Assembly: GCA_039030395.1 (NCBI GenBank)
Contig: JBCCEF010000001.1
Span: 417,315-481,314 of the forward strand
Direction: 5' to 3'
DNA: 64,000 nucleotides
Source of the DNA: Acidobacteriota bacterium
GTDB lineage: Bacteria > Acidobacteriota > Thermoanaerobaculia > Multivoradales > JBCCEF01
Of this stretch, positions 1 to 63,173 are shown piece by piece; the stretch's first letter is position 1, and every line of letters begins with the position of its first letter. The position numbers were made by a program, and so were the translations under genes. The notes under the pieces are model-generated. The model did not search any database. It was not told the origin of the DNA and saw nothing but the letters and a program-made list of their open reading frames with translations.

Positions 1-323
1 TCGCCGCCACCCTCATGCGGCGGGTCCTGGTGGACTACTCCCGCCGCCGCTCGGCGGCCAAGCGCGGCGGTGGCGGGCAACCGGTCACCCTCGCCGAGAT
101 CGACCTCCCGAGCCAGCCGCCCCCCAGCGTCGAAGCCCTTGACGACGCGCTGCGCGCTCTGGCGGATCTCGATCCGCGCAAGGCCCAGGTAGTCGAGCTG
201 CGCTTCTTCGGCGGCATGACCATCGACGAAACGGCGACCTATCTGGACATTTCCCACGCCACCGTCGAACGCGACCTGAAGGTCGCCAAGGCGTGGCTAT
301 CGAGGGAGATGCATCCTGCCTGA
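1..323 (+). CDS. ECF-type RNA polymerase sigma factor, C-terminal part (5' end outside window)
   Basis: ORF 15..323 runs off the window start. It shows a sigma-70 region 4 helix-turn-helix (RFFGGMTIDETATYLDISHATVERDLKVAKAWL). It lies immediately upstream of a Ser/Thr kinase, an arrangement typical of STK-associated ECF families. Confidence 0.65.
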   Translation, partial: AATLMRRVLVDYSRRRSAAKRGGGGQPVTLAEIDLPSQPPPSVEALDDALRALADLDPRKAQVVELRFFGGMTIDETATYLDISHATVERDLKVAKAWLSREMHPA

Positions 324-330
324 GGAACCC

Positions 331-2970
<2,640 letters not shown>

Positions 2971-7051: not shown

Positions 7052-8977
7052 TCACCCTGCTAGCTCCTCCAGCTCGGCCCATCGCTCATAGAGGCGTTCG
7101 AGCTCCGGCTCAATCTCAGCCAGGCGGTTCTGGAGGGCGGTAACGCGATCGCCGCCTTCTTTGTAGGTCTCAGGGCTCGCCAGATCGGCGTGGATCTGGC
7201 GCTGTTCCTGCTCCAGCGCCTCGATGCGGGCCGGCGCCGTGGCGAGGTCTTCGCGCTCGCGATTGCTCAGCTTGCGTCGCCCGCCGGGCGGCGGCCCCGG
7301 CGGACGGGCGGCGGTCTTTTCCGCAGGTTTCGCCTCCACCACCTGCGGCGCCCGCTGGCGCAGCCAATCGCTGTAGCCGCCGGCGTACTCCCCCACCCGG
7401 CCGTCGCCCTCCATCACCAGAGTGCTGGTGACCACGTTGTCTAGGAAAGCGCGGTCGTGACTCACCACCAACAGGGTGCCCGAAAATTCCACCAGCAGGG
7501 CTTCGAGCAGCTCCAGCGTCTCGATGTCGAGGTCGTTGGTCGGCTCGTCGAGCACCAGGACGTTGGCCGGCCGGGTGAAAAGGCGCGCCAGCAGCAACCG
7601 GTTGCGCTCGCCGCCGGAGAGTGCCTTGACCGGCCCACGAGTTTGCTCCGGAGTGAATAGAAAATCCGCCAGATAGCTGATGATGTGCCGTGTCTTGCCG
7701 CCAACGGTGACCTTGTCGCTTCCCTCGGCGACGTTGTCCGCCACGCTTTCCTCGTCGTCGAGCTGTTCGCGATGCTGGTCGAAGTAGGCCACGTCGAGGC
7801 GGGTACCCCGCCGCACCCGGCCGGTGGCCGGCTCGAGGTCGCCCAGCAGCAGCTTCAGCAGGGTGCTCTTGCCGGAGCCGTTGGGGCCGAGAATCCCCAC
7901 CTTGTCGCCGGAGAGGATGGTGGTGGAGACATCACGCACCACCGGCTCGGCGGTTGCGCCGGAGCCGTAGGTAAAGGTCACGCCCTCCGCCTCGAAGACG
8001 ATCTTGCCGGAGCGGCCGCCGGCCTCCACCCGTAGACGCGCCGTGCCGGTCGTCGCGCGGCGCGCCCGACGCTCTTCGCGCAGCCGTTCGAGGGCCCGCA
8101 CCCGCCCTTCGTTGCGGGTGCGCCGCGCCTTGAGGCCCTGGCGAATCCACGCTTCTTCCTGCGCCAGCTTTTTGTCGAACTTGTCGGCGTGGCGCGCCTC
8201 CACCTCCAGTCGCTGCCGACGCTGCTCCAGAAAGTGCCCCCAGTCCCCCGGTGAGTCGGTCAGCCGGCCGCGGTCGAGTTCGACGATGCGGGTCGCCAGC
8301 CGCCGCAGGAAAGCGCGGTCGTGGGTAACGAAAATCAGCGCTCCAGCAAAGGCCAACAGGCCCTCTTCGAGCCACTCGATAGCGGGAATGTCGAAGTGGT
8401 TGGTGGGCTCGTCGAGGAGCAGGACATCCGGTTCCGCCACCAGCGCGCGGGCCAGGAGCACCCGCCGCTTGAGGCCACCGGAGAGGGTCTCGAACCGGCC
8501 CGAGTGCGGTAGGTTGAGGCGGGTGATCACCGTTTTCACGCGGCGCTTGATCTCCCAGCCTCCGGCCGCCTCGAGCCGATTCTGCACCTGCTCCATGCGG
8601 TGTAAATCGCCGGCGCCGCCCTCCAGTTCGAGGCTCAGCCGGTGATACTCCGCCAGCAGGGCGCCCAACTCCGCCACGCCGGAGGCCACCAGTTCGTAGA
8701 TCTCACCGGTCAGGTCCTGCGGCACCTCCTGGGTCAGGCGGGCGACCCGCAGCCCGGCGGTCCGCAGCACCTCGCCTTCGTCCGGCGGCAGCTCCTCGGC
8801 CAACACCTTGAGCAAGGTGGACTTGCCCGAACCGTTCCGGCCCACCAGGGCGATCCGCTCGCCGACCTCGGCGTGGAAGGTCGCGCCGTCGAGCACCGGC
8901 GCACCGCCGAAGGCGACGGTGACTTTGCGAACCCCGATGCGCTTGGTCTCGGCCATGGCGCCGATCCTACTCGCCAC
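7052..8977 (-). CDS. ABC-F family ATPase with two ABC domains and a C-terminal coiled coil (Uup-like)
   Basis: 641 aa. Two Walker A motifs (GRNGSGKST, GPNGSGKST) and two ABC signature motifs (LSGGLKRRVLLARAL, LSGGERNRLLLARL). There is no transmembrane domain. The C-terminus is a charged coiled coil. Confidence 0.85.
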   Translation of the reverse strand: MASRIGAMAETKRIGVRKVTVAFGGAPVLDGATFHAEVGERIALVGRNGSGKSTLLKVLAEELPPDEGEVLRTAGLRVARLTQEVPQDLTGEIYELVASGVAELGALLAEYHRLSLELEGGAGDLHRMEQVQNRLEAAGGWEIKRRVKTVITRLNLPHSGRFETLSGGLKRRVLLARALVAEPDVLLLDEPTNHFDIPAIEWLEEGLLAFAGALIFVTHDRAFLRRLATRIVELDRGRLTDSPGDWGHFLEQRRQRLEVEARHADKFDKKLAQEEAWIRQGLKARRTRNEGRVRALERLREERRARRATTGTARLRVEAGGRSGKIVFEAEGVTFTYGSGATAEPVVRDVSTTILSGDKVGILGPNGSGKSTLLKLLLGDLEPATGRVRRGTRLDVAYFDQHREQLDDEESVADNVAEGSDKVTVGGKTRHIISYLADFLFTPEQTRGPVKALSGGERNRLLLARLFTRPANVLVLDEPTNDLDIETLELLEALLVEFSGTLLVVSHDRAFLDNVVTSTLVMEGDGRVGEYAGGYSDWLRQRAPQVVEAKPAEKTAARPPGPPPGGRRKLSNREREDLATAPARIEALEQEQRQIHADLASPETYKEGGDRVTALQNRLAEIEPELERLYERWAELEELAG

Positions 8978-33502: not shown

Positions 33503-34599
33503 AGCCTAGACTTTGGATTCCCTTCGCCATCCTGGTGGCCGCCGTGGCCGCCGCTATCTTTCTCGCCGACCCGGCCGCCACTCCGGCCCTGAGCGAGCGG
33601 CCCGGTAGCGGAGCCGCCCGAGTGCTCACCGCGCCGGTGGAGACCCTCTCGGCCGCCCGGGCGGTGCATCTGCCCGGCACCACCCGCGCCGGCCGGCGGG
33701 CTCACCTGGCCTTCGAATCGAGCGGCCGGATCGTCGAACGCCGGGTCGATCTGGGCGATGCGGTGCGCCGCGGCCAGGTGGTGGCCCGCCTCGACGCGAG
33801 TCCCTTCGAACTGGCCGTCAGCGCCGCCGCCGCCCGGCTGGTGGAGGCGGAAGAAAGGCTGACGCAGCTCCAGCGCGACCGCCAGCGGAGCGAGGAATTG
33901 GCCGCCGACGGCGCCGCGACGCGCGAGGAGGTCGAGCAGGTCACCGCCGGAGCGGCGGCCCTAACGGCGGCCCGCGACGCCGCCAAGACGGCCCTCGAAA
34001 ACGCCCGGCGGGCGCAGCGCGAGACGGTTCTCACCGCCCCCTTCGATGGCGTGGTGAGCGCCGTCAAAGCGTCCGCTGGCGAGCAGATCGGCGCCGGCTC
34101 GCCGGTGGTGACCCTCGACGGTGAGGGCGCCGTAGAGCTGCGCGCCGAGGCGCCGGAGACGCTGCTGCCCTACTTTGCCGCCGGCCAGGAGGTGACCGTG
34201 GAGCTGCCCCTCCAGGGGCGCCGGGTAGTCGGCGAAGTGCTGTCCGTCGGCACCGCTGCCGGCAGCTCGGGACTGTTCCCGGTGCGGGTGGACCTGCCGC
34301 CGGGCCCCGGGGTGCTGCCCGGAGTGACCGCCGAACTGGTGGTGGAAGCGGGCGACCCGCAAGCCCTTTCGGTACCGCTGGCGTCGGTGATCGACCCCAG
34401 CGGCGGCCGCCCGGCCCTCTTCCGGGTGCGCAACGAGGTCGCCGAGCGGGTCACCCTGGAAGTGGGAGGCCTAGTGGGCGACCGAGTGATCGTCGCATCC
34501 GCGAAACCGCCGCTCGCCCTCGCCGACCGGGTGGTGGTCGGCGGCCAGGGATCCCTGCGGGACGGTGACGGCGTGCGCCCTAGCGAGGTCGCGCCGTGA
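33499..34599 (+). CDS. RND efflux membrane-fusion (periplasmic adaptor) protein
   Basis: Start MKPRLWIPFAILVAAVAAAIFL, overlapping the TetR stop (ATGA). Coiled-coil and lipoyl hairpin region (VARLDASPFELAVSAAAARLVEAEERLTQLQRD...). Beta-barrel segments are present. The track ORF 32848.. is a frame extension. Confidence 0.75.
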   Translation: MKPRLWIPFAILVAAVAAAIFLADPAATPALSERPGSGAARVLTAPVETLSAARAVHLPGTTRAGRRAHLAFESSGRIVERRVDLGDAVRRGQVVARLDASPFELAVSAAAARLVEAEERLTQLQRDRQRSEELAADGAATREEVEQVTAGAAALTAARDAAKTALENARRAQRETVLTAPFDGVVSAVKASAGEQIGAGSPVVTLDGEGAVELRAEAPETLLPYFAAGQEVTVELPLQGRRVVGEVLSVGTAAGSSGLFPVRVDLPPGPGVLPGVTAELVVEAGDPQALSVPLASVIDPSGGRPALFRVRNEVAERVTLEVGGLVGDRVIVASAKPPLALADRVVVGGQGSLRDGDGVRPSEVAP

Positions 34600-37500
34600 G
34601 CTTCCTGCTCGATCTCCTCGGCCGGCGACGGATGATTCTCACTTCCGTCGCGCTGCTGGCGCTCGCCGGCGGCCTCGCCTGGGGCACCATGCCGCGGCAA
34701 GAGGATCCGGAGTTTCTCTCCTACTGGGGACAGATCATCGTGCCTTTCCCCGGGGCCGACGCGCGCACCGTCGAACGGCTGGTGGTGGAGCCCCTGGAGG
34801 AGCATTTGGCGGAGGTGAACGACCTCTACCTGATCGAGTCCTTCGCCCGCGCCGAAATCGCCGTCTTCGAGCTGGAGCTGCGGCCGAACGTCAAGGACGT
34901 CGACGAAGCCTGGGACGACACCCGGGAAGTGATCGCCGAAGCGCGGCGAGACTTTCCCGCCGGCGTCTTGGAGCCGACCTTCAAGGACGACACGACGGAC
35001 CAGGAGTCGGTGGTGGTGGCGATCACCGGCAGCTCTGATCGCTGGGCCCTCGCCCGCGCCGCCGAGCGGGTGAAGGATTCCCTTCTAGGACTGCCTTCGG
35101 TCTCCCGGGTGGAGATCGTGGGCGACCCGGAAGAGCAGGTGACGGTGGAGCTGGACGATGCCGCCGCCGCACGCCTCGGCCTGGCTCCGGGGTACCTCGC
35201 CCGGCAGCTCCAGGCGCGCAACGGCATCCTCGCCGGCGGCACCCTCAAGGTGGGCGACCAGCAGGTCACTCTGCGACCTCACACGGATTTCCGCGATCTC
35301 GACGAGATCGCCGCCACCCCCATTCTTCTGGTCTCCGGCGCGGCCATTCCCCTGTCCGAGGTCGCCACGGTGCGTTACGGCGCCAAGGAACCCACCCCCA
35401 ACCGCATGCGCTTCAACGGTGAAACCGCCGTCGGTCTCGGCGTGGTGCCGCGCAAGGGGATCAACGTGGTGAAATTCGGTGAGGCGGTGCGCGAGCGACT
35501 GGCGGGGATCCAAGCGGACATCGCTCCGCTGGAGCTGCACGAGGCGATCTTCCAGCCGGATCGAGTGGCCTGGCGCATTTCCGATCTCGGCCGGTCGCTG
35601 CTCCTATCGATGGTGATCGTCGCCTGTTTCCTGATCGGCGCCATGGGCGCCCGGCTCGGCGCGGTGGTAACGGTGATCGTGCCGCTGGTGGTGTTCTCGT
35701 CCCTCGCTCTCTATGCGCTGCTGGGCGGCCAGCTCCACCAGATCTCCATCGCCGCCCTGGTGATCGCCCTCGGCATGCTGGTGGACAACGCCATCGTGGT
35801 GGCCGAGAACGTCCAGGATCGCCTCGACCGCGGCGAGCCGGCGGCGGTGGCGGCACCCTCCGCCATCCGCGCCCTCGCCGTTCCCCTGGCCGGCGCCACC
35901 GGCACCACCCTGGCGGCCTTCGTGCCGATGCTCGCCGCCGCCGGGCCGACGGCGGAGTTCACCCGCGCCATCCCCCAGTTGGTGATGCTCACCCTCGCCA
36001 TGAGCTACTTGTACGCGGTGTTCGTGACCCCGATCCTTTCGCAGATGGTGCTCCGCCGGCGCGAGACCCAGAAGCCTCCCTGGCTGCAGTCGATCAGCCA
36101 CCGCTTCGGCGCCCTGGCCGTCGGCCGGCCGCTACTGGTGCTGGCCTGTGCCGCGCTGCTCGTCGGGCTGTCCTTCTATGCCTCGAGCTTCGTGCGGCGG
36201 GGGTTCTTCCCGCAGTCGGACCGCAACCAGTTGATGGTCGACCTGAAGCTGCCGGAAGGCGCCCACCTCGAAGCGACCAACGAGATCACCGCTCGCTATG
36301 AGCGCGCCCTGTTGGCGCGGCCGGAGGTGGCCGGCGTAACCACCCTGGTGGGGCGCTCGAGCCCGCACTTCTACTACAACCTGCCGCGCATTCCCCTGGC
36401 CCCGAACTTCGCTCAGCTCGCCGTCGAGACGCGCAATCTGGACGACGTGGAGACAGTCCTCACCTGGAGCCGGGAGTTCGTTGCCCAGGAGATGCCGGCG
36501 GTGGAGATCACCGCCCGGCGGCTGGAGCAGGGGCCGCCGGTGAAGGCGCCCATCGAGGTACGCCTGTTCGGTGAAGACCCAGAGCACCTGGAGGAGGCCG
36601 TCGGCCGGGTGGTCGCCGAGCTGCGGGGCATTCCGCAGGCCGTTGACGTACGCCACGATCTCTCCCTCGGCTCGCCGACGGTGGACTTCCGAATCGACGA
36701 CGCAGCCGCCGCCCGCCGGGGGATCAGCCGCGCCGACGTCGCCCACGCCCTGTTCGGGCGCACCCGCGGCCTACCCGCCGGCGAGTACCGGGCCGGCGAG
36801 GATCCGGTGCCAATCGTGGTGCGTTCGTCGGCCGGCGAGGACCTGCCGGTGGACTCCCTCGGCGGACTGCAGATCGCCACCGCCGACGGCGACACCGTAC
36901 CGCTAGAGCAGGTCGCCACCGTCGGTCTGGAGTGGCGGCCGGCGGCGATCTACCACCGCAACGGCCGGCGGGTCGTCTCGGTCACCTCGCAGCTCGCCTT
37001 CGGTGCCTCCTACAATCAGGTGCTCGCCGAGCTGCAGCCGGCTCTCGCCGAAATGACCCTGCCGCCGGGGGTCGAATGGGCACTCGGCGGCGAAAGCGAA
37101 GGCTCCGGCGACGCCAACGCCGCCCTGGTGCGGATGGTGCCCCTCGGCCTGCTGCTGCTGATGGGCATCCTGCTGGCGGAGTTCAACTCCTTCCGGCGCA
37201 TCGCCATCGTGATGGTGACGGTGCCGCTGGCGGCGGCCGGCGTGGTGCCTGGGCTGCTGATCGGTGGCCAACCCTTCGGCTTCACCTCGACCCTCGGGCT
37301 GATCGCCCTGGTGGGCATCGTGGTCAACAATGCCATCGTACTGCTCGACGTGGTGGAGAAACGCCGCCGCGCCGGGGCGCCCATCGCAGAGGCCCTCGCC
37401 TCCGCCGTCGAGCGGCGCACCCGGCCCATCCTGCTGACCACCGGCACTACCATCGCCGGTTTGCTGCCGCTGGCCTTTTCGTCCACCTCTCTGTGGCCGC

Positions 37501-39026
37501 CGATGGCCTGGTCGATGATCTCCGGCCTGCTCGCGTCGACGCTCCTCACCCTGTTGGTGGTGCCGGCCCTCTACACCCTGCTGTTCTCGCGCTGGAACGA
37601 TCTGCCCTTCCGGCGCGCCGCCACCGCGACCACCCTGGTGCTCGCGCTGTCGGCGGTCCTCGCCGCTCCGGCCCTGCGGGCGGAGGAGACCGACGACGAT
37701 CCGCGGACGGACCCGACCGTTGTCGCCTCGCCGATCGAAGTCACCCTAGCCGAGGCGATGGACCAAGCCTTCTCCCGGCCGGGCGCCGAGGCGGCCATGG
37801 AGCAGGCCATCGCCGCCGGCTGGAACGCCGAAGCGGAGCGCCGCGAAGGATGGCTGCCGCTCCTTGACGTCTTCGCCTCGGCGGTCACCCGCAGCCAGGC
37901 CCTGGCCTTCGACACGCCGATCGGCGAGCTGACCTTTGTCGAGCGCAGCAACGAAACGGCAGAGGTGGTGGTGAGCCAGCCGCTGCTCGACCTGCGCCGG
38001 CGCCGCTTTCTGGCGCCGGCCGCCCGCACCGACGCCGAGTCTCTCGGTTTCGACGCTCTGCGCATCGGCCATCAGGCGGTGGCCCAGGCGGGACTGGTGT
38101 TTGTCGATCTCCAAGGAGTGGCCGCCCGCCTCGAGACCACGGCAACGTTCATCGACAGCCTGGAGAACCGCCTGGCAGAAGCGAACGCCCGTTTCGACCG
38201 GGGACGAGCCCTCGAGAGCGATGTACTCAAGGTCCGCCTCGCCCTCGACAGCGCCCTTCAGGATCGCGTCGCCCTAGAGGCACAGCAAGAGGTGCTGCGC
38301 TTTGAATTGGGCCGCGCCATCGCTTACCAGGGCGGCGTCGCAGCGGCGTGGGATGGCGTGCCGGAACTGCCGTCACCGGCCTCCTTCGAAGTCCTCTTCG
38401 AAGCGGGGCTGGCCCACCGCCCGGACTACCGCACCTACACGGAGCGGGAGCGAGGCGCCACCCTGCGCCGCGAGGCGGTACGGGCGGAGCTGCTCCCCCG
38501 TTTGAACGGCTACGGTCGGTGGAGTTGGGACAGCGGCAGTCCCTTCGATCCAAAGGATCAGGTCGAAGGCGGCCTCCAGATCCGCTGGACCCCCTTCGAC
38601 CGCGCCACCCGCGGCCCGCGGCGGGTGGCCGCCGAGAGCCGCCTGGCGTCCATCCAGGCGGAGCGCAGGGAAGCGGAGCGGGTGGTGGAGATCGACATTC
38701 GCCAGGCGCTGGCGGCCATCCGAGTGGCGGACCAGGCCCTCGCCACCGCCATCACCGGGGTCGATCAAGCGGGCGAGACGCTGCGGGTGGAGCGGCGGCG
38801 CCAGGAGGCCGGCCGTTCCACCACCAACGACCTGCTGGAGGCGGAGGCGGCGCTCCGCGATCAGCGGACGAGGGAGGAACTTGCGCGGCTGGACATCGTC
38901 CGCGGCTGGGTGCTGCTGGGACTTGCCGTAGGGGATCCGGAACTGGTGCTGCGGGGAGGGGAACTGCTCCAGGGAGCCCCGAAGAGCCCCCTGGAGATCT
39001 ATCGTGAGCGCTTCGGCGACGGTTAG
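34596..39026 (+). CDS. RND (AcrB-like) efflux permease fused in-frame to a TolC-like outer-membrane factor domain
   Basis: Single 1476-aa ORF, GTG start overlapping the MFP stop. Residues 1 to ~1000 are a 12-TM RND permease ending ...LLVVPALYTLLFSR. A signal-peptide-like linker RRAATATTLVLALSAVLAAPALRA follows. The last ~450 aa are coiled-coil and beta-barrel in an OEP/TolC pattern (two repeats, leucine-rich heptads). Confidence 0.7.
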   Translation: MSFLLDLLGRRRMILTSVALLALAGGLAWGTMPRQEDPEFLSYWGQIIVPFPGADARTVERLVVEPLEEHLAEVNDLYLIESFARAEIAVFELELRPNVKDVDEAWDDTREVIAEARRDFPAGVLEPTFKDDTTDQESVVVAITGSSDRWALARAAERVKDSLLGLPSVSRVEIVGDPEEQVTVELDDAAAARLGLAPGYLARQLQARNGILAGGTLKVGDQQVTLRPHTDFRDLDEIAATPILLVSGAAIPLSEVATVRYGAKEPTPNRMRFNGETAVGLGVVPRKGINVVKFGEAVRERLAGIQADIAPLELHEAIFQPDRVAWRISDLGRSLLLSMVIVACFLIGAMGARLGAVVTVIVPLVVFSSLALYALLGGQLHQISIAALVIALGMLVDNAIVVAENVQDRLDRGEPAAVAAPSAIRALAVPLAGATGTTLAAFVPMLAAAGPTAEFTRAIPQLVMLTLAMSYLYAVFVTPILSQMVLRRRETQKPPWLQSISHRFGALAVGRPLLVLACAALLVGLSFYASSFVRRGFFPQSDRNQLMVDLKLPEGAHLEATNEITARYERALLARPEVAGVTTLVGRSSPHFYYNLPRIPLAPNFAQLAVETRNLDDVETVLTWSREFVAQEMPAVEITARRLEQGPPVKAPIEVRLFGEDPEHLEEAVGRVVAELRGIPQAVDVRHDLSLGSPTVDFRIDDAAAARRGISRADVAHALFGRTRGLPAGEYRAGEDPVPIVVRSSAGEDLPVDSLGGLQIATADGDTVPLEQVATVGLEWRPAAIYHRNGRRVVSVTSQLAFGASYNQVLAELQPALAEMTLPPGVEWALGGESEGSGDANAALVRMVPLGLLLLMGILLAEFNSFRRIAIVMVTVPLAAAGVVPGLLIGGQPFGFTSTLGLIALVGIVVNNAIVLLDVVEKRRRAGAPIAEALASAVERRTRPILLTTGTTIAGLLPLAFSSTSLWPPMAWSMISGLLASTLLTLLVVPALYTLLFSRWNDLPFRRAATATTLVLALSAVLAAPALRAEETDDDPRTDPTVVASPIEVTLAEAMDQAFSRPGAEAAMEQAIAAGWNAEAERREGWLPLLDVFASAVTRSQALAFDTPIGELTFVERSNETAEVVVSQPLLDLRRRRFLAPAARTDAESLGFDALRIGHQAVAQAGLVFVDLQGVAARLETTATFIDSLENRLAEANARFDRGRALESDVLKVRLALDSALQDRVALEAQQEVLRFELGRAIAYQGGVAAAWDGVPELPSPASFEVLFEAGLAHRPDYRTYTERERGATLRREAVRAELLPRLNGYGRWSWDSGSPFDPKDQVEGGLQIRWTPFDRATRGPRRVAAESRLASIQAERREAERVVEIDIRQALAAIRVADQALATAITGVDQAGETLRVERRRQEAGRSTTNDLLEAEAALRDQRTREELARLDIVRGWVLLGLAVGDPELVLRGGELLQGAPKSPLEIYRERFGDG

Positions 39027-56597: not shown

Positions 56598-57101
56598 ATG
56601 AACTATCGAGCCTTTCCCCTGTTCCAGGATCTCCCCGAGACCGAACTGGCCGAATTCGTGGCCGCCTGCCGGGAAGAAACGCTGGCCGCCGGCGAGGCCT
56701 TCATCGAAGCCGGCACTTCCAGCGACACCCTGTACTTCGTGCTCGCCGGCACCCTGGAAGTCTTTCAGGAGCTGGACGGCGAAGACGTCCAGCTCGCGGT
56801 GCTCGAAGCCCCGGCAGTGGTCGGCGAAATGGAGGCCCTGACCGGCGATCCCCGCGCCGCCTCGGTGCGCCCGCTGGAGGAAACCCGCGCCCTGGTGCTG
56901 CCTTGCGCCACCCTACGCGAGCGTTACCTGCAGGGCGACCGGCCGACCCTGAAGGTCTTCCTCCACATCACCCGCGTCCTCGCCCGGCGGCTCCACGCCA
57001 TGAACAAAAAGTTCGTCGAGCTGCAGAACGAAGACACCGTCCCCCAGGTCCACGACCTCCAGCGCTTCCAGCAAAAGCTGTTCGCCGAGTGGAGCTTCTA
57101 G
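56598..57101 (+). CDS. Stand-alone cyclic-nucleotide-binding (cNMP/CAP effector) domain protein
   Basis: 167 aa. Beta-roll with GEAFIEAGTSSDTLYFVLAGTLEV and the phosphate-binding cassette VVGEMEALTGDPRAASVRP. No DNA-binding HTH follows. Confidence 0.7.
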   Translation: MNYRAFPLFQDLPETELAEFVAACREETLAAGEAFIEAGTSSDTLYFVLAGTLEVFQELDGEDVQLAVLEAPAVVGEMEALTGDPRAASVRPLEETRALVLPCATLRERYLQGDRPTLKVFLHITRVLARRLHAMNKKFVELQNEDTVPQVHDLQRFQQKLFAEWSF

Positions 57102-58915
57102 AGGGAGCCCAGGCTGTCAGCACTTCATTCTTCGGCCCCGACCTTCTCCTAACGGCTGGCGCCCTCGCGGTAGGCGTAGTCGGTCTCTACATAGCGGTTG
57201 GGCGACTGGCCGCGGCCTGGATCCCGATCCTCAGCGAGCATCGCTCGCGGAAACTACTCGAGAATCGACTTGCCCGCGGCCCCTTTGATTCCGACACGAT
57301 CAAATTCGCCACCCGGCGCTACATTCGCCCGCGATACACCAACATCGATCCAGGACAAGAAGCGACCCAACGGCGAATGCCCGTCGCCGCGTCCGGTGAC
57401 CTCTTCGAGGCCGTCGATGATTTCTTGGCCGAGGGGACGTCGCGACGTCATCTTTTGCTCTTGGCTGGACCTGGAACCGGCAAGACCTCCTTTGTCCTGA
57501 ACTACTACGCCTACAACGCAACGAAGCCTTCCAAGCGAAGGCGAACACTGCATCTCGTGCCCCTGGGTCGAGACGATGTCGAAGAGAGAATCGCCGCGGC
57601 CGAGTTTCCCAATGAGACCGTGCTGTTTCTCGACGCGCTCGACGAAGACGTCCAGGCAGTCGAGGACCACCGAGCCCGAATCCGGGACCTCATGGAATTG
57701 TCGAAGGACTTTCGAGCCGTGGTCATCACTTGCCGGACCCAGTTCTTCAGCCGAGATGAGGAGATCCCCACCGAGACCGGCATCACCAAGATCCAACCGC
57801 GTGGACTCGGGGAAGGCGCCGTATACGAGTTCTGGAAACTGTACTTGGCGCCTCTCAACGATCGGGAGGTACGTCGATACCTTCGACGGTGCTTCAAACC
57901 TTGGCAAGTCAAGGCGCGTCGCAGGGCCAAAGGTCTTCTTCGGAAGTCCGCGGACCTCATGCTACGCCCCATGTTGCTCAGTCATCTTCCGGAGCTGGTG
58001 GAACAGGACAGCATCAGCACGAGAGCGCAGATCTACGAGGCCATCGTCGCGGGCTGGATTGAACGAGAAGATGGATGGGTGAACAAAAACACCTTGTGGC
58101 AGTTCTCAGAGCGGCTCGCCGCGAACTTGTACCTGGAACGCGAACGGCGGGGCATGGAAGCAGTGCATGCCGATGAGCTCTCAGAACTCGCAAGCCGGTG
58201 GGAGATCGACATTCAGCCCTGGCAAGCGCGTGGCCGGGCGCTCCTCAACCGAGACGCTGTCGGCAACTACAAGTTCTCTCATCGATCCATCATGGAGTAC
58301 TTGTTCGCGAAGCAATGGGGAAATGAGGAGTTCATAGCTGAAGTTCCCCGCGACTCGTTCATTCCACTAACGGATGCGATGAGCGCGTTCATCCTCGACT
58401 CCCCACACAGTCAGATTGAGACAACTGGCATAGCGAAAGGCGTTACGAGAAATCCAGCAATGATATCGACGCCCTTCCTGCCCAACGGCATCAGACTGCC
58501 CAATACCAAAGCATTTCACACACCCATTGACGTCCCACACACGACCTTCAAGAATGAGCGTCTGGGCACTGCGGCGCGGAGCTTGGTCAACGACATCACA
58601 GCGTTTGGTGCGAAGATCGGCAAGGATGAACTTCTTACTGACGATGAAATGTCTCACTTCACATTGGGACTAGATTTCAGGGTCCGAAAAGAACAGTTCA
58701 AGGCGACCTTCTACTTTGAACAAACTCCTCGAAGAGCCAAAGCGCGGCTATCTCAGACCTTCATCCTCAAGCGATTGGGTATCGCTTCCGACGGTCTTTA
58801 CTTCCGGGTTTCACAGGAGAGATCTACCTACTCTGCATACTGGAAACACCAGGGACTCTTGTACTTTTCGCCGTCAAGAGAAGGCGTCTTTATAGTCATT
58901 AACCACGTAAGATAG
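57089..58915 (+). CDS. Membrane-anchored NACHT-family STAND NTPase with an unassigned low-GC C-terminal domain
   Basis: A GTG start at 57089 is proposed (in frame; it overlaps the cNMP gene stop). N-terminal TM helix LLLTAGALAVGVVGLYIAVGRLAAAWIPIL. Walker A LLLAGPGTGKTSFV; NACHT-type Walker B VLFLDALDED; sensor VVITCRTQF. The last ~190 aa have markedly lower GC. Confidence 0.6.
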   Translation: MELLEGAQAVSTSFFGPDLLLTAGALAVGVVGLYIAVGRLAAAWIPILSEHRSRKLLENRLARGPFDSDTIKFATRRYIRPRYTNIDPGQEATQRRMPVAASGDLFEAVDDFLAEGTSRRHLLLLAGPGTGKTSFVLNYYAYNATKPSKRRRTLHLVPLGRDDVEERIAAAEFPNETVLFLDALDEDVQAVEDHRARIRDLMELSKDFRAVVITCRTQFFSRDEEIPTETGITKIQPRGLGEGAVYEFWKLYLAPLNDREVRRYLRRCFKPWQVKARRRAKGLLRKSADLMLRPMLLSHLPELVEQDSISTRAQIYEAIVAGWIEREDGWVNKNTLWQFSERLAANLYLERERRGMEAVHADELSELASRWEIDIQPWQARGRALLNRDAVGNYKFSHRSIMEYLFAKQWGNEEFIAEVPRDSFIPLTDAMSAFILDSPHSQIETTGIAKGVTRNPAMISTPFLPNGIRLPNTKAFHTPIDVPHTTFKNERLGTAARSLVNDITAFGAKIGKDELLTDDEMSHFTLGLDFRVRKEQFKATFYFEQTPRRAKARLSQTFILKRLGIASDGLYFRVSQERSTYSAYWKHQGLLYFSPSREGVFIVINHVR

Positions 58916-58931
58916 TCGGACGAGAATCTCT

Positions 58932-59852
58932 TTGCCTGAGCTGCCTGACGTCGAGCTGTACCTTCACGCCCTGACGACCCGGGTGGTCGGCCGACGGCTG
59001 GAGCGCATTCGCCTGGCGAGCCCCTTTCTGTTGCGCAGCGTTCGGCCGCCGATCTCCACGGCGGAAGGCAAGGCGGTCACCGGCCTCCGAAGAATCGGCA
59101 AGCGGATCGTCTTCGAGCAGGAAGATGAACTGTTCCTGGTGATCCACCTGATGGTCGCCGGGCGATTCCAGTGGAAGCCGCGGCACGAAGGTGACCCGCC
59201 GGCCAAGATCCCCGGCCGGCTCGGATCGGCGGCGTTCGACTTTGCCGCGGGCACGCTGCTGCTGACGGAGGCCGGCTCGAAGAAGCGGGCATCGCTCCAT
59301 CTGGTGGAGGGCGAGAAGGGCCTACGCTTGCACGATCCCGGCGGCATCGAACCGTTGACCTCGCCCGACGAGGCCGTACTGGCCGCTCTGCGAGCCGAGA
59401 ACCACACCCTCAAACGAGCCCTGACCGACCCGCACATCCTGGCCGGCATCGGCAACGCCTACTCGGACGAGATCCTGCACCGGGCTCAGCTCTCGCCTTT
59501 CAAGCAGACCAAGCACCTGACCGACGACGAAGGCGATCGCCTACTCCAGGCGATGCGGGCGGTCCTCACGGAGTGGATCGAGCGCTTGCAGACCGAGACC
59601 GGCGACGGCTTCCCGAAGAAGGTCACCGCCTTCCGCCCGGAGATGGCCGTCCACGGGCGCTACCGCGAGCCTTGCCCGGAGTGCGGCGCCCCGGTGCAGC
59701 GCATTCTGTACGCGGAGAACGAGTCCAATTACTGCGCCCCCTGCCAGACCGGCGGCAAGCTGCTGGCGGACCGGGTGCTCTCCAAGCTCTTGAAAGGCGA
59801 CTGGCCAAAGACGCTCGAAGAGTTGGAGCGGCGTAAGGACGCTGCCTCCTGA
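58932..59852 (+). CDS. Fpg/Nei family DNA glycosylase/AP lyase
   Basis: N-terminal catalytic MPELPDVE, an H2TH region and a C-terminal zinc finger CPECGAPVQRILYAENESNYCAPCQ. Confidence 0.8.
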   Translation: MPELPDVELYLHALTTRVVGRRLERIRLASPFLLRSVRPPISTAEGKAVTGLRRIGKRIVFEQEDELFLVIHLMVAGRFQWKPRHEGDPPAKIPGRLGSAAFDFAAGTLLLTEAGSKKRASLHLVEGEKGLRLHDPGGIEPLTSPDEAVLAALRAENHTLKRALTDPHILAGIGNAYSDEILHRAQLSPFKQTKHLTDDEGDRLLQAMRAVLTEWIERLQTETGDGFPKKVTAFRPEMAVHGRYREPCPECGAPVQRILYAENESNYCAPCQTGGKLLADRVLSKLLKGDWPKTLEELERRKDAAS

Positions 59853-60113
59853 AGCTTCCTTCCGCCCCGGTGAGGGGATCGTTCGCCGTTTTGCGCATTC
59901 CTAAATAGAACCTCGATCGCTGAGAAGCCATCGCGGCCGGTAGCTTGGGCACCGGCCGGTGCGTCGCGGATCCATCCGCCGGCGCCCCGGTGGAGGTGTC
60001 TCCGGACCGCATCGCTCCCGGCGATCCCCTTTCCAATCGCTGGCGACCGCTCGGTATTGGAGCTTCTGGAGTTCCGGCGGACTGCCGGCAGGCCACAAGG
60101 AGCTTGCGCTTTG

Positions 60114-60596
60114 ATGAAGTCTTTCGGATCTCGATGTTGCTGGATCGGAATCTTCGCCCTCCTCTTCACCCTCTTCACCTTCCCCACCTTCGCCGAACGA
60201 GCCACGGGCTCGCAATGCACGCCCATCGCCGTCGACACCACCTCGGACTCGGTCGCGGCCCTGCTCGCCAGGGGCGTGGTGACCCCCCTCGGCCAACCGT
60301 TGGTCGAGCGCTCCCGGCAGGGCGAGGTCAACGTCAAGGAATCCCGGCAGAACTTCGTGATCCGCGACAAAGACGGCTACGCCATCGGCGGCGGAACCAC
60401 CACCTGCACCGCCACCTGCACCGGCGGCTGCGGCATTTCCGGTTGTGACCCGGACGATGGCGGCTGTACCGGCTGCATCTGCCGCGACAACTGGGACTGT
60501 CCGTCCTGCACCTGCAAGAAGTCGACAACCGCCGAGACCGCGCCAAACCAGCCCAGGCCGCGGGACGACGTTCCGCGCTCCCCTTCCTTCGACTGA
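60114..60596 (+). CDS. Secreted cysteine-rich small protein, paralogue 1 of 4
   Basis: Signal peptide MKSFGSRCCWIGIFALLFTLFTFPTFA. Blocks CTPIAVD; FVIRDKDGYAIGGGTTTCTATCTG; 9-Cys core ending CTCKK; tail STTAETAPNQPRPRDDVPRSPSFD. Confidence 0.65.
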   Translation: MKSFGSRCCWIGIFALLFTLFTFPTFAERATGSQCTPIAVDTTSDSVAALLARGVVTPLGQPLVERSRQGEVNVKESRQNFVIRDKDGYAIGGGTTTCTATCTGGCGISGCDPDDGGCTGCICRDNWDCPSCTCKKSTTAETAPNQPRPRDDVPRSPSFD

Positions 60597-60614
60597 ACCG
60601 GAAAGGAAACTGAA

Positions 60615-61070
60615 ATGAAGAAAATCACCGTCCTGTCCGCGCTGATCCTGCTCACCCTCTCGCCCTTCGCCCTGGCCGAGGCACCGGTCGACTGCAAGCC
60701 CACCGCCATCGACGCCACGGCACCGAACATCGCCGCCCTGCTGGCCCAAGGCCAAGTGCAGGCCCTCGGCGCTCCGGTTACGCGCCTCAACACCATCGGC
60801 ACTCGCGTCGTCAAGGAGTCCTCCCAGCCGTTCATCATCCGCAATAGGGACGGCATGGCGATCGGCGGCGGAACCACCACCTGTGAGGCCACCTGTACCG
60901 GCTCCTGGTGCGGCGTCTCCGGTTGCGATCCAGACGAAGGCGGCTGCTCGGCCTGCTCCTGTAACGGTAACTGTAGTTCCGAGTGCACCTGCAAAAAGAC
61001 CACGACGGCGGAGACCGCTCCCACCCCGGTCAATCCGCGCAACGTACCGCGTGAGCCGAGCTTCCGTTAG
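60615..61070 (+). CDS. Secreted cysteine-rich small protein, paralogue 2 of 4
   Basis: Signal peptide MKKITVLSALILLTLSPFALA. Blocks CKPTAID; FIIRNRDGMAIGGGTTTCEATCTG; Cys core; tail TTTAETAPTPVNPRNVPREPSFR. RBS aggaaa. Confidence 0.7.
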   Translation: MKKITVLSALILLTLSPFALAEAPVDCKPTAIDATAPNIAALLAQGQVQALGAPVTRLNTIGTRVVKESSQPFIIRNRDGMAIGGGTTTCEATCTGSWCGVSGCDPDEGGCSACSCNGNCSSECTCKKTTTAETAPTPVNPRNVPREPSFR

Positions 61071-61142
61071 GTGCGCCCTTCCCCAACGAATCTCAATCCA
61101 GCTTCGTCGGCGTACACCGCCGGCGGAGCTCTAGGAGGACCG

Positions 61143-61613
61143 ATGAAGAAACTCTCTTTTGCCATCCTGCTGCTGGCCTTGGTCGCCGGCCCCGCCCTCA
61201 CCATGGATCTTCCCGACCCGCAGGGGACCGAGTGCAAACCCCTCGCCATCGACCTCACCGCACCGGCGATCGCCGATCTCCTGCGCACCGGCGATCTTCT
61301 TGCCTTGGGCACTCCACAGGTCGAGTGGAAGGCCGGCGGAGCGGTCAAAGTCGAGCGACAGGACTTCGTGATCCGCGACAAGGACGGCTACGCCATCGGC
61401 GGCGGAACCACCACCTGCACGGGCTCCTGCGCCGGCAGCAGCGACTGCACCGTCAGCGGCTGCAAGGCCGAAACGGCGGGCTGCTCCCACTGCTCGTGCA
61501 GTGGCATCCATTGCGACTACGGCTGCACTTGTAAAAAGGAATCCAGTTACTCGCCGGCTCCGGCGGAACCCGGCAACGTGCCGCGGGACCGCACGCCGAC
61601 GCCCTTCTTCTAG
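61143..61613 (+). CDS. Secreted cysteine-rich small protein, paralogue 3 of 4
   Basis: Signal peptide MKKLSFAILLLALVAGPALT. Blocks CKPLAID; FVIRDKDGYAIGGGTTTCTGSC; Cys core ending CTCKK; tail SPAPAEPGNVPRDRTPTPFF. A 58-nt stretch is nearly identical to paralogue 1. Confidence 0.7.
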   Translation: MKKLSFAILLLALVAGPALTMDLPDPQGTECKPLAIDLTAPAIADLLRTGDLLALGTPQVEWKAGGAVKVERQDFVIRDKDGYAIGGGTTTCTGSCAGSSDCTVSGCKAETAGCSHCSCSGIHCDYGCTCKKESSYSPAPAEPGNVPRDRTPTPFF

Positions 61614-61649
61614 CCAGCCATTTCGTGCACTTTCTTACGGAGGAACTCA

Positions 61650-62102
61650 ATGCGCAAAGCACTCGTACTCTGGATCGCAGCGGCGCTCTTTGCCACCGCC
61701 GCCTACGCCGAGCGAAAGGCCGGCTGTGAGGCGGTCGCCGTGGACGACAGCTCGCCAACGGCTCTCGATCTGCTGGCCTCCGGGCGGGCGGTGGCGACCG
61801 CCGCCCCGAGCACCCGCCACGAGGTGGTGAACGGTAAGGACACGAAGATTTCCAGCCTGCCGTTCGTCGTGTTCAATACCGAAGGTCAAGCCATTGGAGG
61901 CGGCACCACCACCTGTACCGCCACCTGCTCGGGAGCTTGGTGCGCCACCCGCGGCTGCGATCCTTCTGCCACCGGCTGCTCACCGTGTAGCTGCGACGGC
62001 GATTGCTATACGGTTTGTACCTGTAAAAAGAAGACCACCGCGGAAACGGCTCCGGCCCCAACCAATCCGCGCGGCCCGAACGACCGGCCCCGCAGCTTCT
62101 GA
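61650..62102 (+). CDS. Secreted cysteine-rich small protein, paralogue 4 of 4
   Basis: Signal peptide MRKALVLWIAAALFATAAYA. Blocks CEAVAVD; FVVFNTEGQAIGGGTTTCTATCSG; Cys core ending CTCKK; tail KTTAETAPAPTNPRGPNDRPRSF. RBS ggagg. Confidence 0.7.
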   Translation: MRKALVLWIAAALFATAAYAERKAGCEAVAVDDSSPTALDLLASGRAVATAAPSTRHEVVNGKDTKISSLPFVVFNTEGQAIGGGTTTCTATCSGAWCATRGCDPSATGCSPCSCDGDCYTVCTCKKKTTAETAPAPTNPRGPNDRPRSF

Positions 62103-62179
62103 TCGAAGCACCCCTCGGGCGATCGAGATCCCTCGGTCGCCTGTTCTCTTCCTTGCGTTGTTCGGAGGAAACGCTCGAT

Positions 62180-62560
62180 TCAACGAGCGAAGAAGACCAG
62201 CACGTCCAGGTCCTCGGTGATCGAGTGAAAACGATGCTCCACCTCGGCCGCCACGAAGATCACCGCTCCACTCCCTACCGGCCGGTCCTCGCCGGCGATG
62301 GAAATCACCGCCTTGCCGCGAAGGACGAAGTAGATCTCGTCCTCGGCGTGGGGGTTCTGGAGGTCCTCGGATCCAGCCGGCAGCCGATAGAGGCCGGTAC
62401 GCAGGTTGGCATTGGCGAAGAACTCGAGCCAGGGGCCTTCGGTGCCGGCGAGGCGATGGCGGAGTTCTTCCAACTCGAAGACGGCGCCGGACACTGTCGC
62501 CGAGGCACCGCCGGGGAGCAAAGCGCCTAGCGCTAACGCCGTCGCCAGTGCACGCCTCAC
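62180..62560 (-). CDS. Secreted cupin-domain protein
   Basis: Signal peptide MRRALATALALGALLPGGASA. Cupin motifs HAEDEIYFVLRG and GAVIFVAAEVEHRF. Confidence 0.6.
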   Translation of the reverse strand: MRRALATALALGALLPGGASATVSGAVFELEELRHRLAGTEGPWLEFFANANLRTGLYRLPAGSEDLQNPHAEDEIYFVLRGKAVISIAGEDRPVGSGAVIFVAAEVEHRFHSITEDLDVLVFFAR

Positions 62561-62838
62561 CGCCGGTCCGTTCCAGGAGGCGTCACGTTCTTCGGGCGCC
62601 GCCGGTGGAATCCATCGTCGTGGTCGTCGTCCTGGGCGGCCTCCGGCCGCCGCAAGCGACCGAGGAAAACGGTCAACAGGCCGAGCATGATCTCGTCCGC
62701 AAAGGGGATCATGTCCGGCAGGACGAGGTCGATCAAGAAGACCGCCGCCGTGACGAAGAACAGCTGTGGATACTTGAGTCGGCCGGCGAAGTTTTCGATG
62801 AAGCTCTTTCGCCGGGTGTCGCTGGGAGAGTGAGCCAT
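62557..62838 (-). CDS. Small hypothetical membrane protein
   Basis: 93 aa with a hydrophobic core (LFFVTAAVFLIDLVLPDMIPFADEIMLGLLTVFLG). It overlaps the cupin gene start by 4 nt. Confidence 0.35.
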   Translation of the reverse strand: MAHSPSDTRRKSFIENFAGRLKYPQLFFVTAAVFLIDLVLPDMIPFADEIMLGLLTVFLGRLRRPEAAQDDDHDDGFHRRRPKNVTPPGTDRR

Positions 62839-62879
62839 GAAGTGAGTATAGCGCTCAGCGGGCCGCTCCCCAGGGGCGA

Positions 62880-63173
62880 TCAGGTGAACACGGCTTCGTA
62901 TTCGATGCCGTCACCCTTCGGCCCAAGGGGCACCAGGAACAAGCCCATCTCGCCGAGACCAGCGTGCTCCAGGGAGTAAATCGCCTGTTCCAGAACCGGC
63001 TCCGCCGGACCGCGGAAGAGCACCGAGAAGGGCTCCCGCGAGGAATCCGGATTCTTCACCATGGCGGTGACCTCGGTGATCTCGAGGTCGATCGCCGGAT
63101 CGCCCTCCAAGGTCAGTCGGGCCTTGGAACCGACGTGCTCCTGGAAGGTGGAAAGCTGTAGTTTTTCGAGCAT
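62880..63173 (-). CDS. Hypothetical small protein
   Basis: 97 aa, acidic, no recognisable motif. It has the same orientation as neighbouring small genes. Confidence 0.3.
   Translation of the reverse strand: MLEKLQLSTFQEHVGSKARLTLEGDPAIDLEITEVTAMVKNPDSSREPFSVLFRGPAEPVLEQAIYSLEHAGLGEMGLFLVPLGPKGDGIEYEAVFT

Follow-up and report, generated by a model that had tools for sequence, protein, structure and literature searches.

The tandem gene array and its products

Four open reading frames (ORFs) lie in tandem on the forward strand at positions 60114 to 62102 of the window, i.e., the whole stretch of 64,000 nucleotides (nt) from an uncultured Acidobacteriota that was analysed here, and encode paralogous proteins of 150 to 160 amino acids (aa), termed W1 to W4. 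The lengths match exactly those of the NCBI gene calls AAF481_01805 to AAF481_01820 on the 637-kb contig of this Acidobacteriota metagenome-assembled genome (MAG). The intergenic gaps of 18 (W1–W2), 72 (W2–W3), and 36 nt (W3–W4) given in an earlier prediction made from the bare sequence (hereafter the original prediction) were borne out by the ORF list. Purine-rich ribosome-binding sites had been assigned to most of the genes; a Shine–Dalgarno-like purine run was seen 6 to 12 nt upstream of all four when the sequence was read. A terminator-like hairpin follows the stop codon of gene 4 and likely marks the end of a four-gene transcription unit, although it is weak evidence, since 2.2 such sites per region were counted in shuffled sequence. 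In the remaining 60 kb of the window, no additional copies of the family were detected. The array comprises the following elements:

60097–60102, forward strand: Shine–Dalgarno-like AAGGAG of gene 1
60114–60596, forward strand: gene 1 (W1; AAF481_01805), ORF of 160 aa
60600–60609, forward strand: Shine–Dalgarno-like GGAAAGGAAA of gene 2
60615–61070, forward strand: gene 2 (W2; AAF481_01810), ORF of 151 aa
61133–61139, forward strand: Shine–Dalgarno-like AGGAGGA of gene 3
61143–61613, forward strand: gene 3 (W3; AAF481_01815), ORF of 156 aa
61639–61645, forward strand: Shine–Dalgarno-like GGAGGAA of gene 4
61650–62102, forward strand: gene 4 (W4; AAF481_01820), ORF of 150 aa
62116–62153, forward strand: terminator-like hairpin of 12 pairs (8 G–C; 62116–62143) with a T-rich tail, 14 nt downstream of the stop codon of gene 4

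The pairwise identity among W1 to W4 is 49–56%, and profile E-values of 1e-60 to 1e-70 place their homology well beyond chance. Each protein consists of a signal peptide, one N-terminal cysteine (Cys), a core of 10 Cys rich in C, S, T, and G, and a Pro-rich tail, which is divergent in W3. The N-terminus is Sec-like in all four (basic residues, 15–20 hydrophobic residues, and an AxA-type site, read by eye), in line with the signal peptides claimed before, and the description of the array as exported, Cys-rich, tandemly amplified proteins is supported. The mature proteins have a mass of approximately 13–14 kDa, are acidic to neutral (pI 4.9–6.8), and contain 11 Cys (1 + 10); W1 has two more inside its signal peptide. 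The ten Cys and five disulfides per mature protein proposed earlier ignored the eleventh residue. In the core, C, S, T, and G together account for 67–70% of the residues and Cys for about a quarter, with a Cys spacing of 4,5,5,7,3,2,4,4,2. The parts of the proteins are arranged as follows:

W1: signal peptide, residues ~1–27; Cys35; conserved block from residue 81; core with 10 Cys, residues 98–136 (nt 60405–60521); Pro-rich tail, residues 137–160
W2: signal peptide, residues ~1–21; Cys27; core, residues 90–128 (nt 60882–60998); tail, residues 129–151
W3: Cys31; core, residues 92–132 (nt 61416–61538); divergent tail
W4: signal peptide, residues ~1–20; Cys26; core, residues 89–127 (nt 61914–62030); tail, residues 128–150

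All four copies share the motifs AIGGGTTTC and CTCKK without change, whereas several other elements of the original prediction had to be corrected. A single N-terminal Cys is present throughout, but its motif, described as C(K/T/E)P, reads CEA in W4. The block described as invariant retains AIGGGTTTC in every copy, but W3 continues with CTGSC instead of C.A(T/S)C. The core always ends in CTCKK, yet it holds 10 and not 8–9 Cys. The TTAETAP tail is missing from W3. The lipobox pattern [LVI][ASTVI][GAS]C with its Cys at position +1 of the mature protein was absent from W1 to W4: the residues preceding the conserved N-terminal Cys are GSQ, PVD, GTE, and KAG, and this Cys is located 3–9 residues past the AxA-type site. 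The C-terminal Phe was considered as an outer-membrane beta-signal and rejected, as the tail is Pro-rich and lacks the alternating hydrophobic pattern.

Conserved cores and homogenised flanks

A second Acidobacteriota MAG (GCA_039028635.1, locus L001) encodes the same four types, B1 to B4, arranged in identical order, and in a third lineage (L003 to L006) the tandem comprises five genes. The orthologue pairs are W1–B1, W2–B2, W3–B3 (and C4 of the third lineage), and W4–B4. In a neighbour-joining tree, W4 pairs with B4, W1 with B1, and W3 with B3 and C4, while W2 and B2 fall into the W1/B1 group. Orthologues are approximately 55% identical at the protein level, and regional amino acid and nucleotide identities were used, synonymous sites being saturated. 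With the regions delimited in W2 numbering (N-terminal module before the block, tail after the core), the amino acid identities are:

N-terminal module: 39% between orthologues, 35% between window paralogues
Block, residues 73–96: 59% between orthologues, 72% between window paralogues
Cys core, residues 97–126: 76% between orthologues, 53% between window paralogues
Tail: 43% between orthologues, 51% between window paralogues

The core, at 76% identity between orthologues versus 53% between paralogues, is therefore the most constrained region and specific to each paralogue, not hypervariable as had been proposed. When the shared Cys were left out, the cores remained 71–74% identical in the W–B orthologue pairs versus 19–50% between paralogues. 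Individual types are recognisable by signatures within this region: CTGGCG..GCDPDDG..DNWDC is common to W1 and its L001 orthologue, GCKxETxGCSHCSCSGIHC of W3 is kept in L001 and L003, and GAWCATRGCDP..CSPCSCDGDC is common to W4 and its L001 orthologue. By these comparisons, the cores are old, specific to their paralogue, and evolve under purifying selection. In a diversifying toxin or adhesin array, the variable region should evolve faster than the scaffold between genomes; here, the core was compared with an N-terminal module of 39% and a tail of 43% identity, and the opposite was observed. The likeness to toxin, bacteriocin, or adhesin families with a diversified core, which the original prediction had drawn, could not be upheld, since the second MAG carries all four types in unchanged order and the third lineage carries five.

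The flanks, in turn, look invariant because of concerted evolution within each genome. At the nucleotide level, the block is 93% identical between W1 and W3, compared with 76% between W1 and B1 and 65% between W3 and B3. Within this region, two tracts match each other with a single mismatch, as had been noted before:

60352–60409, forward strand: gene-conversion tract, copy in gene 1, covering the conserved block FVIRDKDGYAIGGGTTTC; 57/58 nt match to 61363–61420
61363–61420, forward strand: gene-conversion tract, copy in gene 3; 57/58 nt match to 60352–60409

The identity over the whole W1–W3 pair is 59%, and none of 5000 codon-column shuffles reached a tract of 57/58 nt. Recent gene conversion between copies 1 and 3, which had already been suspected, is thus supported by the sequence comparison. 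The homogenisation of block and tail in each genome is most simply attributed to gene conversion. The locus shows two processes at work inside single genes, with gene conversion homogenising one part and selection keeping a segment of 35 residues paralogue-specific across genomes. For readings made from sequence only, this is a caution that "variable between copies" does not mean "diversifying".

A rare family with a paired cysteine pattern

In an exhaustive hidden Markov model search of 1.84 billion cluster representatives, 182 matches were obtained at E ≤1e-3 and 79 at E ≤1e-10. Among the best 150 of these 182 matches, nearly all are single-domain proteins of 130–170 aa. A word-indexed homologue search returned 12 proteins and a second one with a 60-sequence profile five, and a related-locus search with a narrower alignment yielded one usable genome locus and two metagenome loci. 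One further candidate locus (L011) was rejected because it rested on a chance match of 12 residues. The best matches of W1 to W4 in Pfam-A (E 0.14) and NCBIfam (E 0.067) were far below the cut-off, PADLOC gave no match, the 60-sequence profile retrieved 0 PDB chains at E ≤10, and tblastn against plasmid and phage collections found nothing. A literature search on the accessions and on Cys-rich exported proteins of Acidobacteria returned nothing relevant. Judged by these searches, W1 to W4 belong to a new, undescribed family without a curated or solved relative, in agreement with the original prediction, whose author had not recognised it. With about 180 cluster representatives among 1.8 billion, no Pfam model, and no solved relative, this rare family clearly merits a database entry of its own and the determination of a structure. 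As long as no function is assigned, it is of limited practical importance; the members are without an attached phenotype and known only from uncultured organisms.

The residues conserved across the family are, in W2 numbering, the Cys, D33, T35, L43, G52, G62, K67, S69, Q71, F73, G80, G96, G103, P106, G118, and K128. The GGG motif and the Pro-rich tail are confined to the close clade. Tandem arrays were seen in three related lineages only, and most members are singletons. A lipobox-like site is present in approximately 22 of 148 other family members; P0146 carries a PG_binding_1 domain and P0135 a Mucin2_WxxW domain. In P0066 (448 aa, from a JGI contig of 1.5 kb), two whole copies of the domain follow another Cys-rich region. 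The composition of this protein looks eukaryote-like, and the domain may also occur outside bacteria.

The core contains 8 Cys in 73 and 10 Cys in 69 of 148 sequences. The difference is made by C114 and C124, which are jointly present in 69, jointly absent in 74, and found singly in only 5 of the 148 sequences (Fisher p = 2e-36). Since the two residues are gained or lost together and the core count stays even, this is the pattern expected of disulfide pairs. At least 102 of the 148 members have one extra Cys between the signal peptide and the core, and the total number of Cys is odd in 108. A conserved Cys left over in this way points to a free thiol or to a disulfide between molecules. Members with an 8-Cys core, e.g., P0046 (C-x3-C-x4-C-x4-C-x6-C-x4-C-x4-C-x4-C), are devoid of any CxC, CxxC, or CC motif, which argues against clusters of the metallothionein type.

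Predicted structure

Two independent AlphaFold2 models were obtained, for W2 (12-sequence alignment; mean predicted local distance difference test score (pLDDT) 82, above 90 for residues 30–130) and W3 (148-sequence alignment; mean pLDDT 86.5, above 94 for residues 31–140). In both models, the elements follow each other as strand, helix, and strands, with the Cys-rich segment forming the last strands of the domain. The mature protein is thus predicted to be one compact domain, in which a short helix is packed on a curved antiparallel sheet. Because the Cys region lies inside this domain at a pLDDT above 90, it is part of the fold and not a detachable peptide. A Foldseek search gave no match at E ≤0.001 (E >0.1, TM ≤0.34). 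The nearest folds, below the level of homology, are NTF2-like and cystatin-like alpha+beta rolls (PDB 3dxo, SnoaL-like; 6uio, cystatin-8; 7uai, fetuin-B). NTF2 has three helices, the models only one; the last strands with 10 Cys and a C/S/T/G-rich composition are without counterpart in these rolls, and the sequences are not similar. Provided that the predictions are correct, the proteins represent a new exported domain with a helix-on-sheet architecture, whose last strands are a C/S/T/G segment with four or five disulfides.

Proposed role and alternative explanations

The genes in the window for a protein with an OEP domain, a FadL-type protein, and TonB-like proteins indicate that the host has an outer membrane, so that a Sec signal alone delivers proteins to the periplasm or envelope. 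In the reading that we favour, though only tentatively, W1 to W4 are encoded in one operon and represent four paralogues, each specialised, of a new envelope domain that is exported, disulfide-stapled, and non-enzymatic, perhaps linked to each other via the odd Cys. After Sec export, the proteins of approximately 13 kDa would most likely be retained in the cell envelope. The C/S/T/G-rich segment would be stapled by four invariant disulfides and by a fifth whose two Cys occur or are missing together, whereas the conserved Cys near the mature N-terminus would have no partner inside the monomer and could join the proteins covalently into homo- or hetero-oligomers. The proteins would serve as rigid, non-enzymatic binding or structural modules, with the four types differing in the conserved surface of the Cys core. 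Gene conversion would keep the pre-core block and the tail alike in each genome, and purifying selection would keep the cores distinct. The Pro-rich tail, which ends in an aromatic residue, may be a clade-specific tether, a function that a lipobox or a peptidoglycan-binding domain seems to take over in other lineages. Chlamydial OmcA/OmcB and the Cys/Pro-rich wall proteins of planctomycetes are exported, Cys-rich, and could be cross-linked by disulfides in the envelope. They are analogous in the proposed mechanism only, as they are unrelated to W1 to W4 in sequence and domains, and cross-linking of the latter is suggested only by the odd Cys count.

A more specific version of this idea, in which the four proteins are subunits of a novel disulfide-cross-linked envelope assembly of Acidobacteriota that is made up of a new disulfide-stapled fold, is doubtful. 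Here, the paralogue-specific cores would provide four fixed, distinct surfaces, block and tail (uniform in each genome through gene conversion) the shared assembly or anchoring interfaces, and the single unpaired N-terminal Cys the covalent link.

Several points weigh against the envelope-domain reading in general. Since the family consists largely of singletons, an assembly of four subunits cannot have been its original mode of action. Gene structure, homology, orthology and gene order, regional conservation, Cys statistics, and the lack of a known relative are shown here, whereas we infer disulfides rather than metal sites, the location in the envelope, oligomerisation, and the binding or structural role; the pairing of the disulfides and the state of the N-terminal Cys are deduced from Cys counts only, and the signal peptides were judged by eye. 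The Pro-rich tail occurs in the close clade only and matches no known sorting signal. Weak links to genes of oxidative stress and repair (fpg, a dnaE2-like gene, msrA, and thioredoxin) could point to a redox or metal role instead.

According to such an alternative, the proteins are a thiol-rich metal or redox buffer of the periplasm, similar to metallothioneins or the copper-storage protein Csp, whose reduced thiolates bind Cu, Zn, or Cd or scavenge oxidants. Like metallothioneins and Cys-rich metal stores (SmtA/BmtA, Csp1), W1 to W4 have a very high Cys content (about a quarter of the core, next to 67–70% C+S+T+G), CxC and CxxC motifs, and a Cys segment poor in aromatic residues. The totals of 9 and 11 Cys that are usual in the family are also found in the two clusters of mammalian metallothioneins, and genes related to oxidative stress are at times located nearby (fpg in the window and in L001; msrA in L015, identified by reading the translation; thioredoxin in L013). 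However, clustered CxC, CxxC, or CC motifs are found in the window copies and are not kept across the family, being absent from the members with an 8-Cys core. The even core count and the two Cys gained or lost strictly as a pair are expected of disulfides and not of cluster ligands. In addition, Sec delivers the proteins to an oxidising compartment, the Cys segment is modelled as regular beta-strands with a pLDDT above 90 in the absence of metal, and no metallothionein model of Pfam or NCBIfam matched. A buffer function is therefore regarded as unlikely.

Secreted antimicrobials or toxins, such as defensin-like proteins or unmodified Sec-dependent bacteriocins, of which four paralogues would widen the target range, are distinctly unlikely as well. 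In favour of this reading are the small size, export, disulfide richness, and tandem amplification of the proteins and the peptidoglycan-binding domain to which some relatives are fused; it is also the analogy made in the original prediction. Nevertheless, no immunity, ABC-exporter, or outer-membrane secretion gene was found beside any array or singleton examined, and phage and plasmid collections contained no matches. The cores are conserved between orthologues instead of diversifying, the mature pI of 4.9–6.8 is unlike that of cationic antimicrobial peptides, and a Sec signal alone would lead only to the periplasm in a host with an outer membrane.

The cystatin-like arrangement of helix and sheet raises the question of envelope protease inhibitors with a disulfide-locked reactive region, in which the Lys after the last Cys (CTC-K/T-K) could be the P1 residue. 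Lys128 is approximately 70% conserved across the family, and many small disulfide-rich exported proteins are inhibitors. On the other hand, membership of the cystatin superfamily would entail a significant fold match and a QxVxG loop; the former was not obtained and the motif was not seen on reading the sequences. No protease gene is conserved alongside, as the fragment of a Peptidase_S41 gene next to the singleton in L008 is a single case. This function is considered quite improbable.

Very improbable is a Thr ladder (TCTxTCT, CTCKKTTT) binding to ice, mineral, or glycan surfaces, comparable to the TCT motifs of insect beta-helical antifreeze proteins. Two predicted strands of W2, T89-C-T-A-T-C-T95 and C124-T-C-K-K-T-T-T131, alternate Thr and Cys, which would place Thr on one face and Cys on the other. 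The tandem 12-residue coils of TmAFP (TCTxSxxCxxAx, with a Cys every 6 residues) are absent, though: the irregular Cys spacing given above shows no 12-residue periodicity, and a sheet with longer strands and not a solenoid is predicted. Moreover, the Thr positions are only 35–50% conserved across the family.

Precursors of ribosomally synthesised and post-translationally modified peptides (RiPPs; lanthipeptide or thiazole/oxazole type), with an extended, conserved leader that ends in GG and a Cys/Ser/Thr core, have a close to negligible probability and were rejected because of the Sec signals, the missing modification enzymes, and the location of the core within the folded domain. The core composition, the GGG just before the first core Cys of the window copies, and the several tandem precursor-like genes recall prochlorosin-type lanthipeptide arrays, in which tandem paralogues are likewise similar in one part and differ in a Cys/Ser/Thr-rich part. 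In contrast to prochlorosins, the part that differs is conserved between species here, and the similarity of the flanks results from gene conversion. A cytoplasmic leader without Sec signal and a separate unstructured core were not found; instead, AlphaFold places the "core" in the same sheet as the "leader" within one predicted globular domain (pLDDT above 90), a conserved tail follows the core, and the GGG is not kept across the family (V, G, or A at this position). No lanthipeptide or other modification enzymes had been visible to the original prediction, and none was detected within approximately 25 kb upstream or 2 kb downstream of the array. Pfam calls at L001, L012, and L013 revealed no modification enzyme or exporter-protease either, and the ORFs read in L010 and L015 included no recognisable RiPP enzyme. 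LanM, LanB, LanC, cyclodehydratase, radical-SAM, and peptidase-ABC transporter genes were thus not detected around the loci examined. The probability left over from all readings listed falls to functions not thought of.

Genomic neighbourhood

No enzyme, transporter, or immunity gene recurs beside the arrays or singletons examined. The array lies downstream of fpg both in the window (fpg at 58932–59852) and in L001 (fpg at 7520–8431), with Fpg products that are 69% identical; all other neighbours in L001 differ. Among the singletons, Hsp90 (htpG)-like and lysine-biosynthesis (dap)-like ORFs are located nearby in L010, glycosyltransferases in L012, a dioxygenase and thioredoxin in L013, and a DEAH-box helicase (HrpB-like) and the methionine sulfoxide reductase msrA in L015 (L010 and L015 by reading translations alone). 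Beside the five-gene array in L003, reading of the translation alone pointed to a dnaE2-like error-prone polymerase with a PHP domain (2–1021, reverse strand). The occurrence of fpg at two arrays and of the dnaE2-like gene, msrA, and thioredoxin may be due to chance or hint at a co-regulation under oxidative or genotoxic stress.

The 25 kb upstream of the array in the window encode an RND efflux pump fused to an outer-membrane factor, a FadL-type outer-membrane protein, TonB-like proteins, aconitase, a helicase, glutamate dehydrogenase, a cyclic nucleotide monophosphate (cNMP)-binding protein, a P-loop NTPase, and fpg. The efflux ORF (34596–39026, forward strand; 1476 aa) combines an AcrB-type RND transporter (residues 12–996) with an OEP domain (residues 1268–1435) and represents an uncommon fusion or, alternatively, two genes that were joined by the mechanical ORF call. 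The P-loop NTPase gene (57101–58915, forward strand) follows the gene for the cNMP-binding protein (56598–57101) directly, with overlapping start and stop codons. Its product is a STAND-like protein of an unassigned family, with GPGTGKTS as its Walker A motif and a membrane helix predicted at the N-terminus. The NACHT NTPase named in the original prediction was not confirmed, as the Pfam matches were sub-threshold (nSTAND3, E 0.005; NPHP3_N, E 0.04) and PADLOC gave no match.

The fpg, cupin, and GNAT genes named before were confirmed as neighbours. The latter two belong to a convergent cluster downstream of the array (62557–63173, reverse strand), which also encodes DUF6116 and DUF6916 proteins and was found again in L007 (2756–3274). 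The cluster is not kept beside the array in the second genome. Beyond this cluster lies a gene for a protein with a phage-tail Collar domain.

An unrelated protein of 145 aa is encoded in L001 (5988–6425, forward strand) between a sigma-70/anti-sigma/CHAT protease cluster, which it follows, and the array, which lies 3 kb further downstream. This protein carries a signal peptide and ends in a Cys-rich region of another kind (NCCIWCGENIMCGGCVDHHGCGTCCVE). The contigs L002, with the array of the second MAG, and L007, with genes 3 and 4 of the window, both originate from run SRR22824298, and both organisms were therefore present in the same sample.

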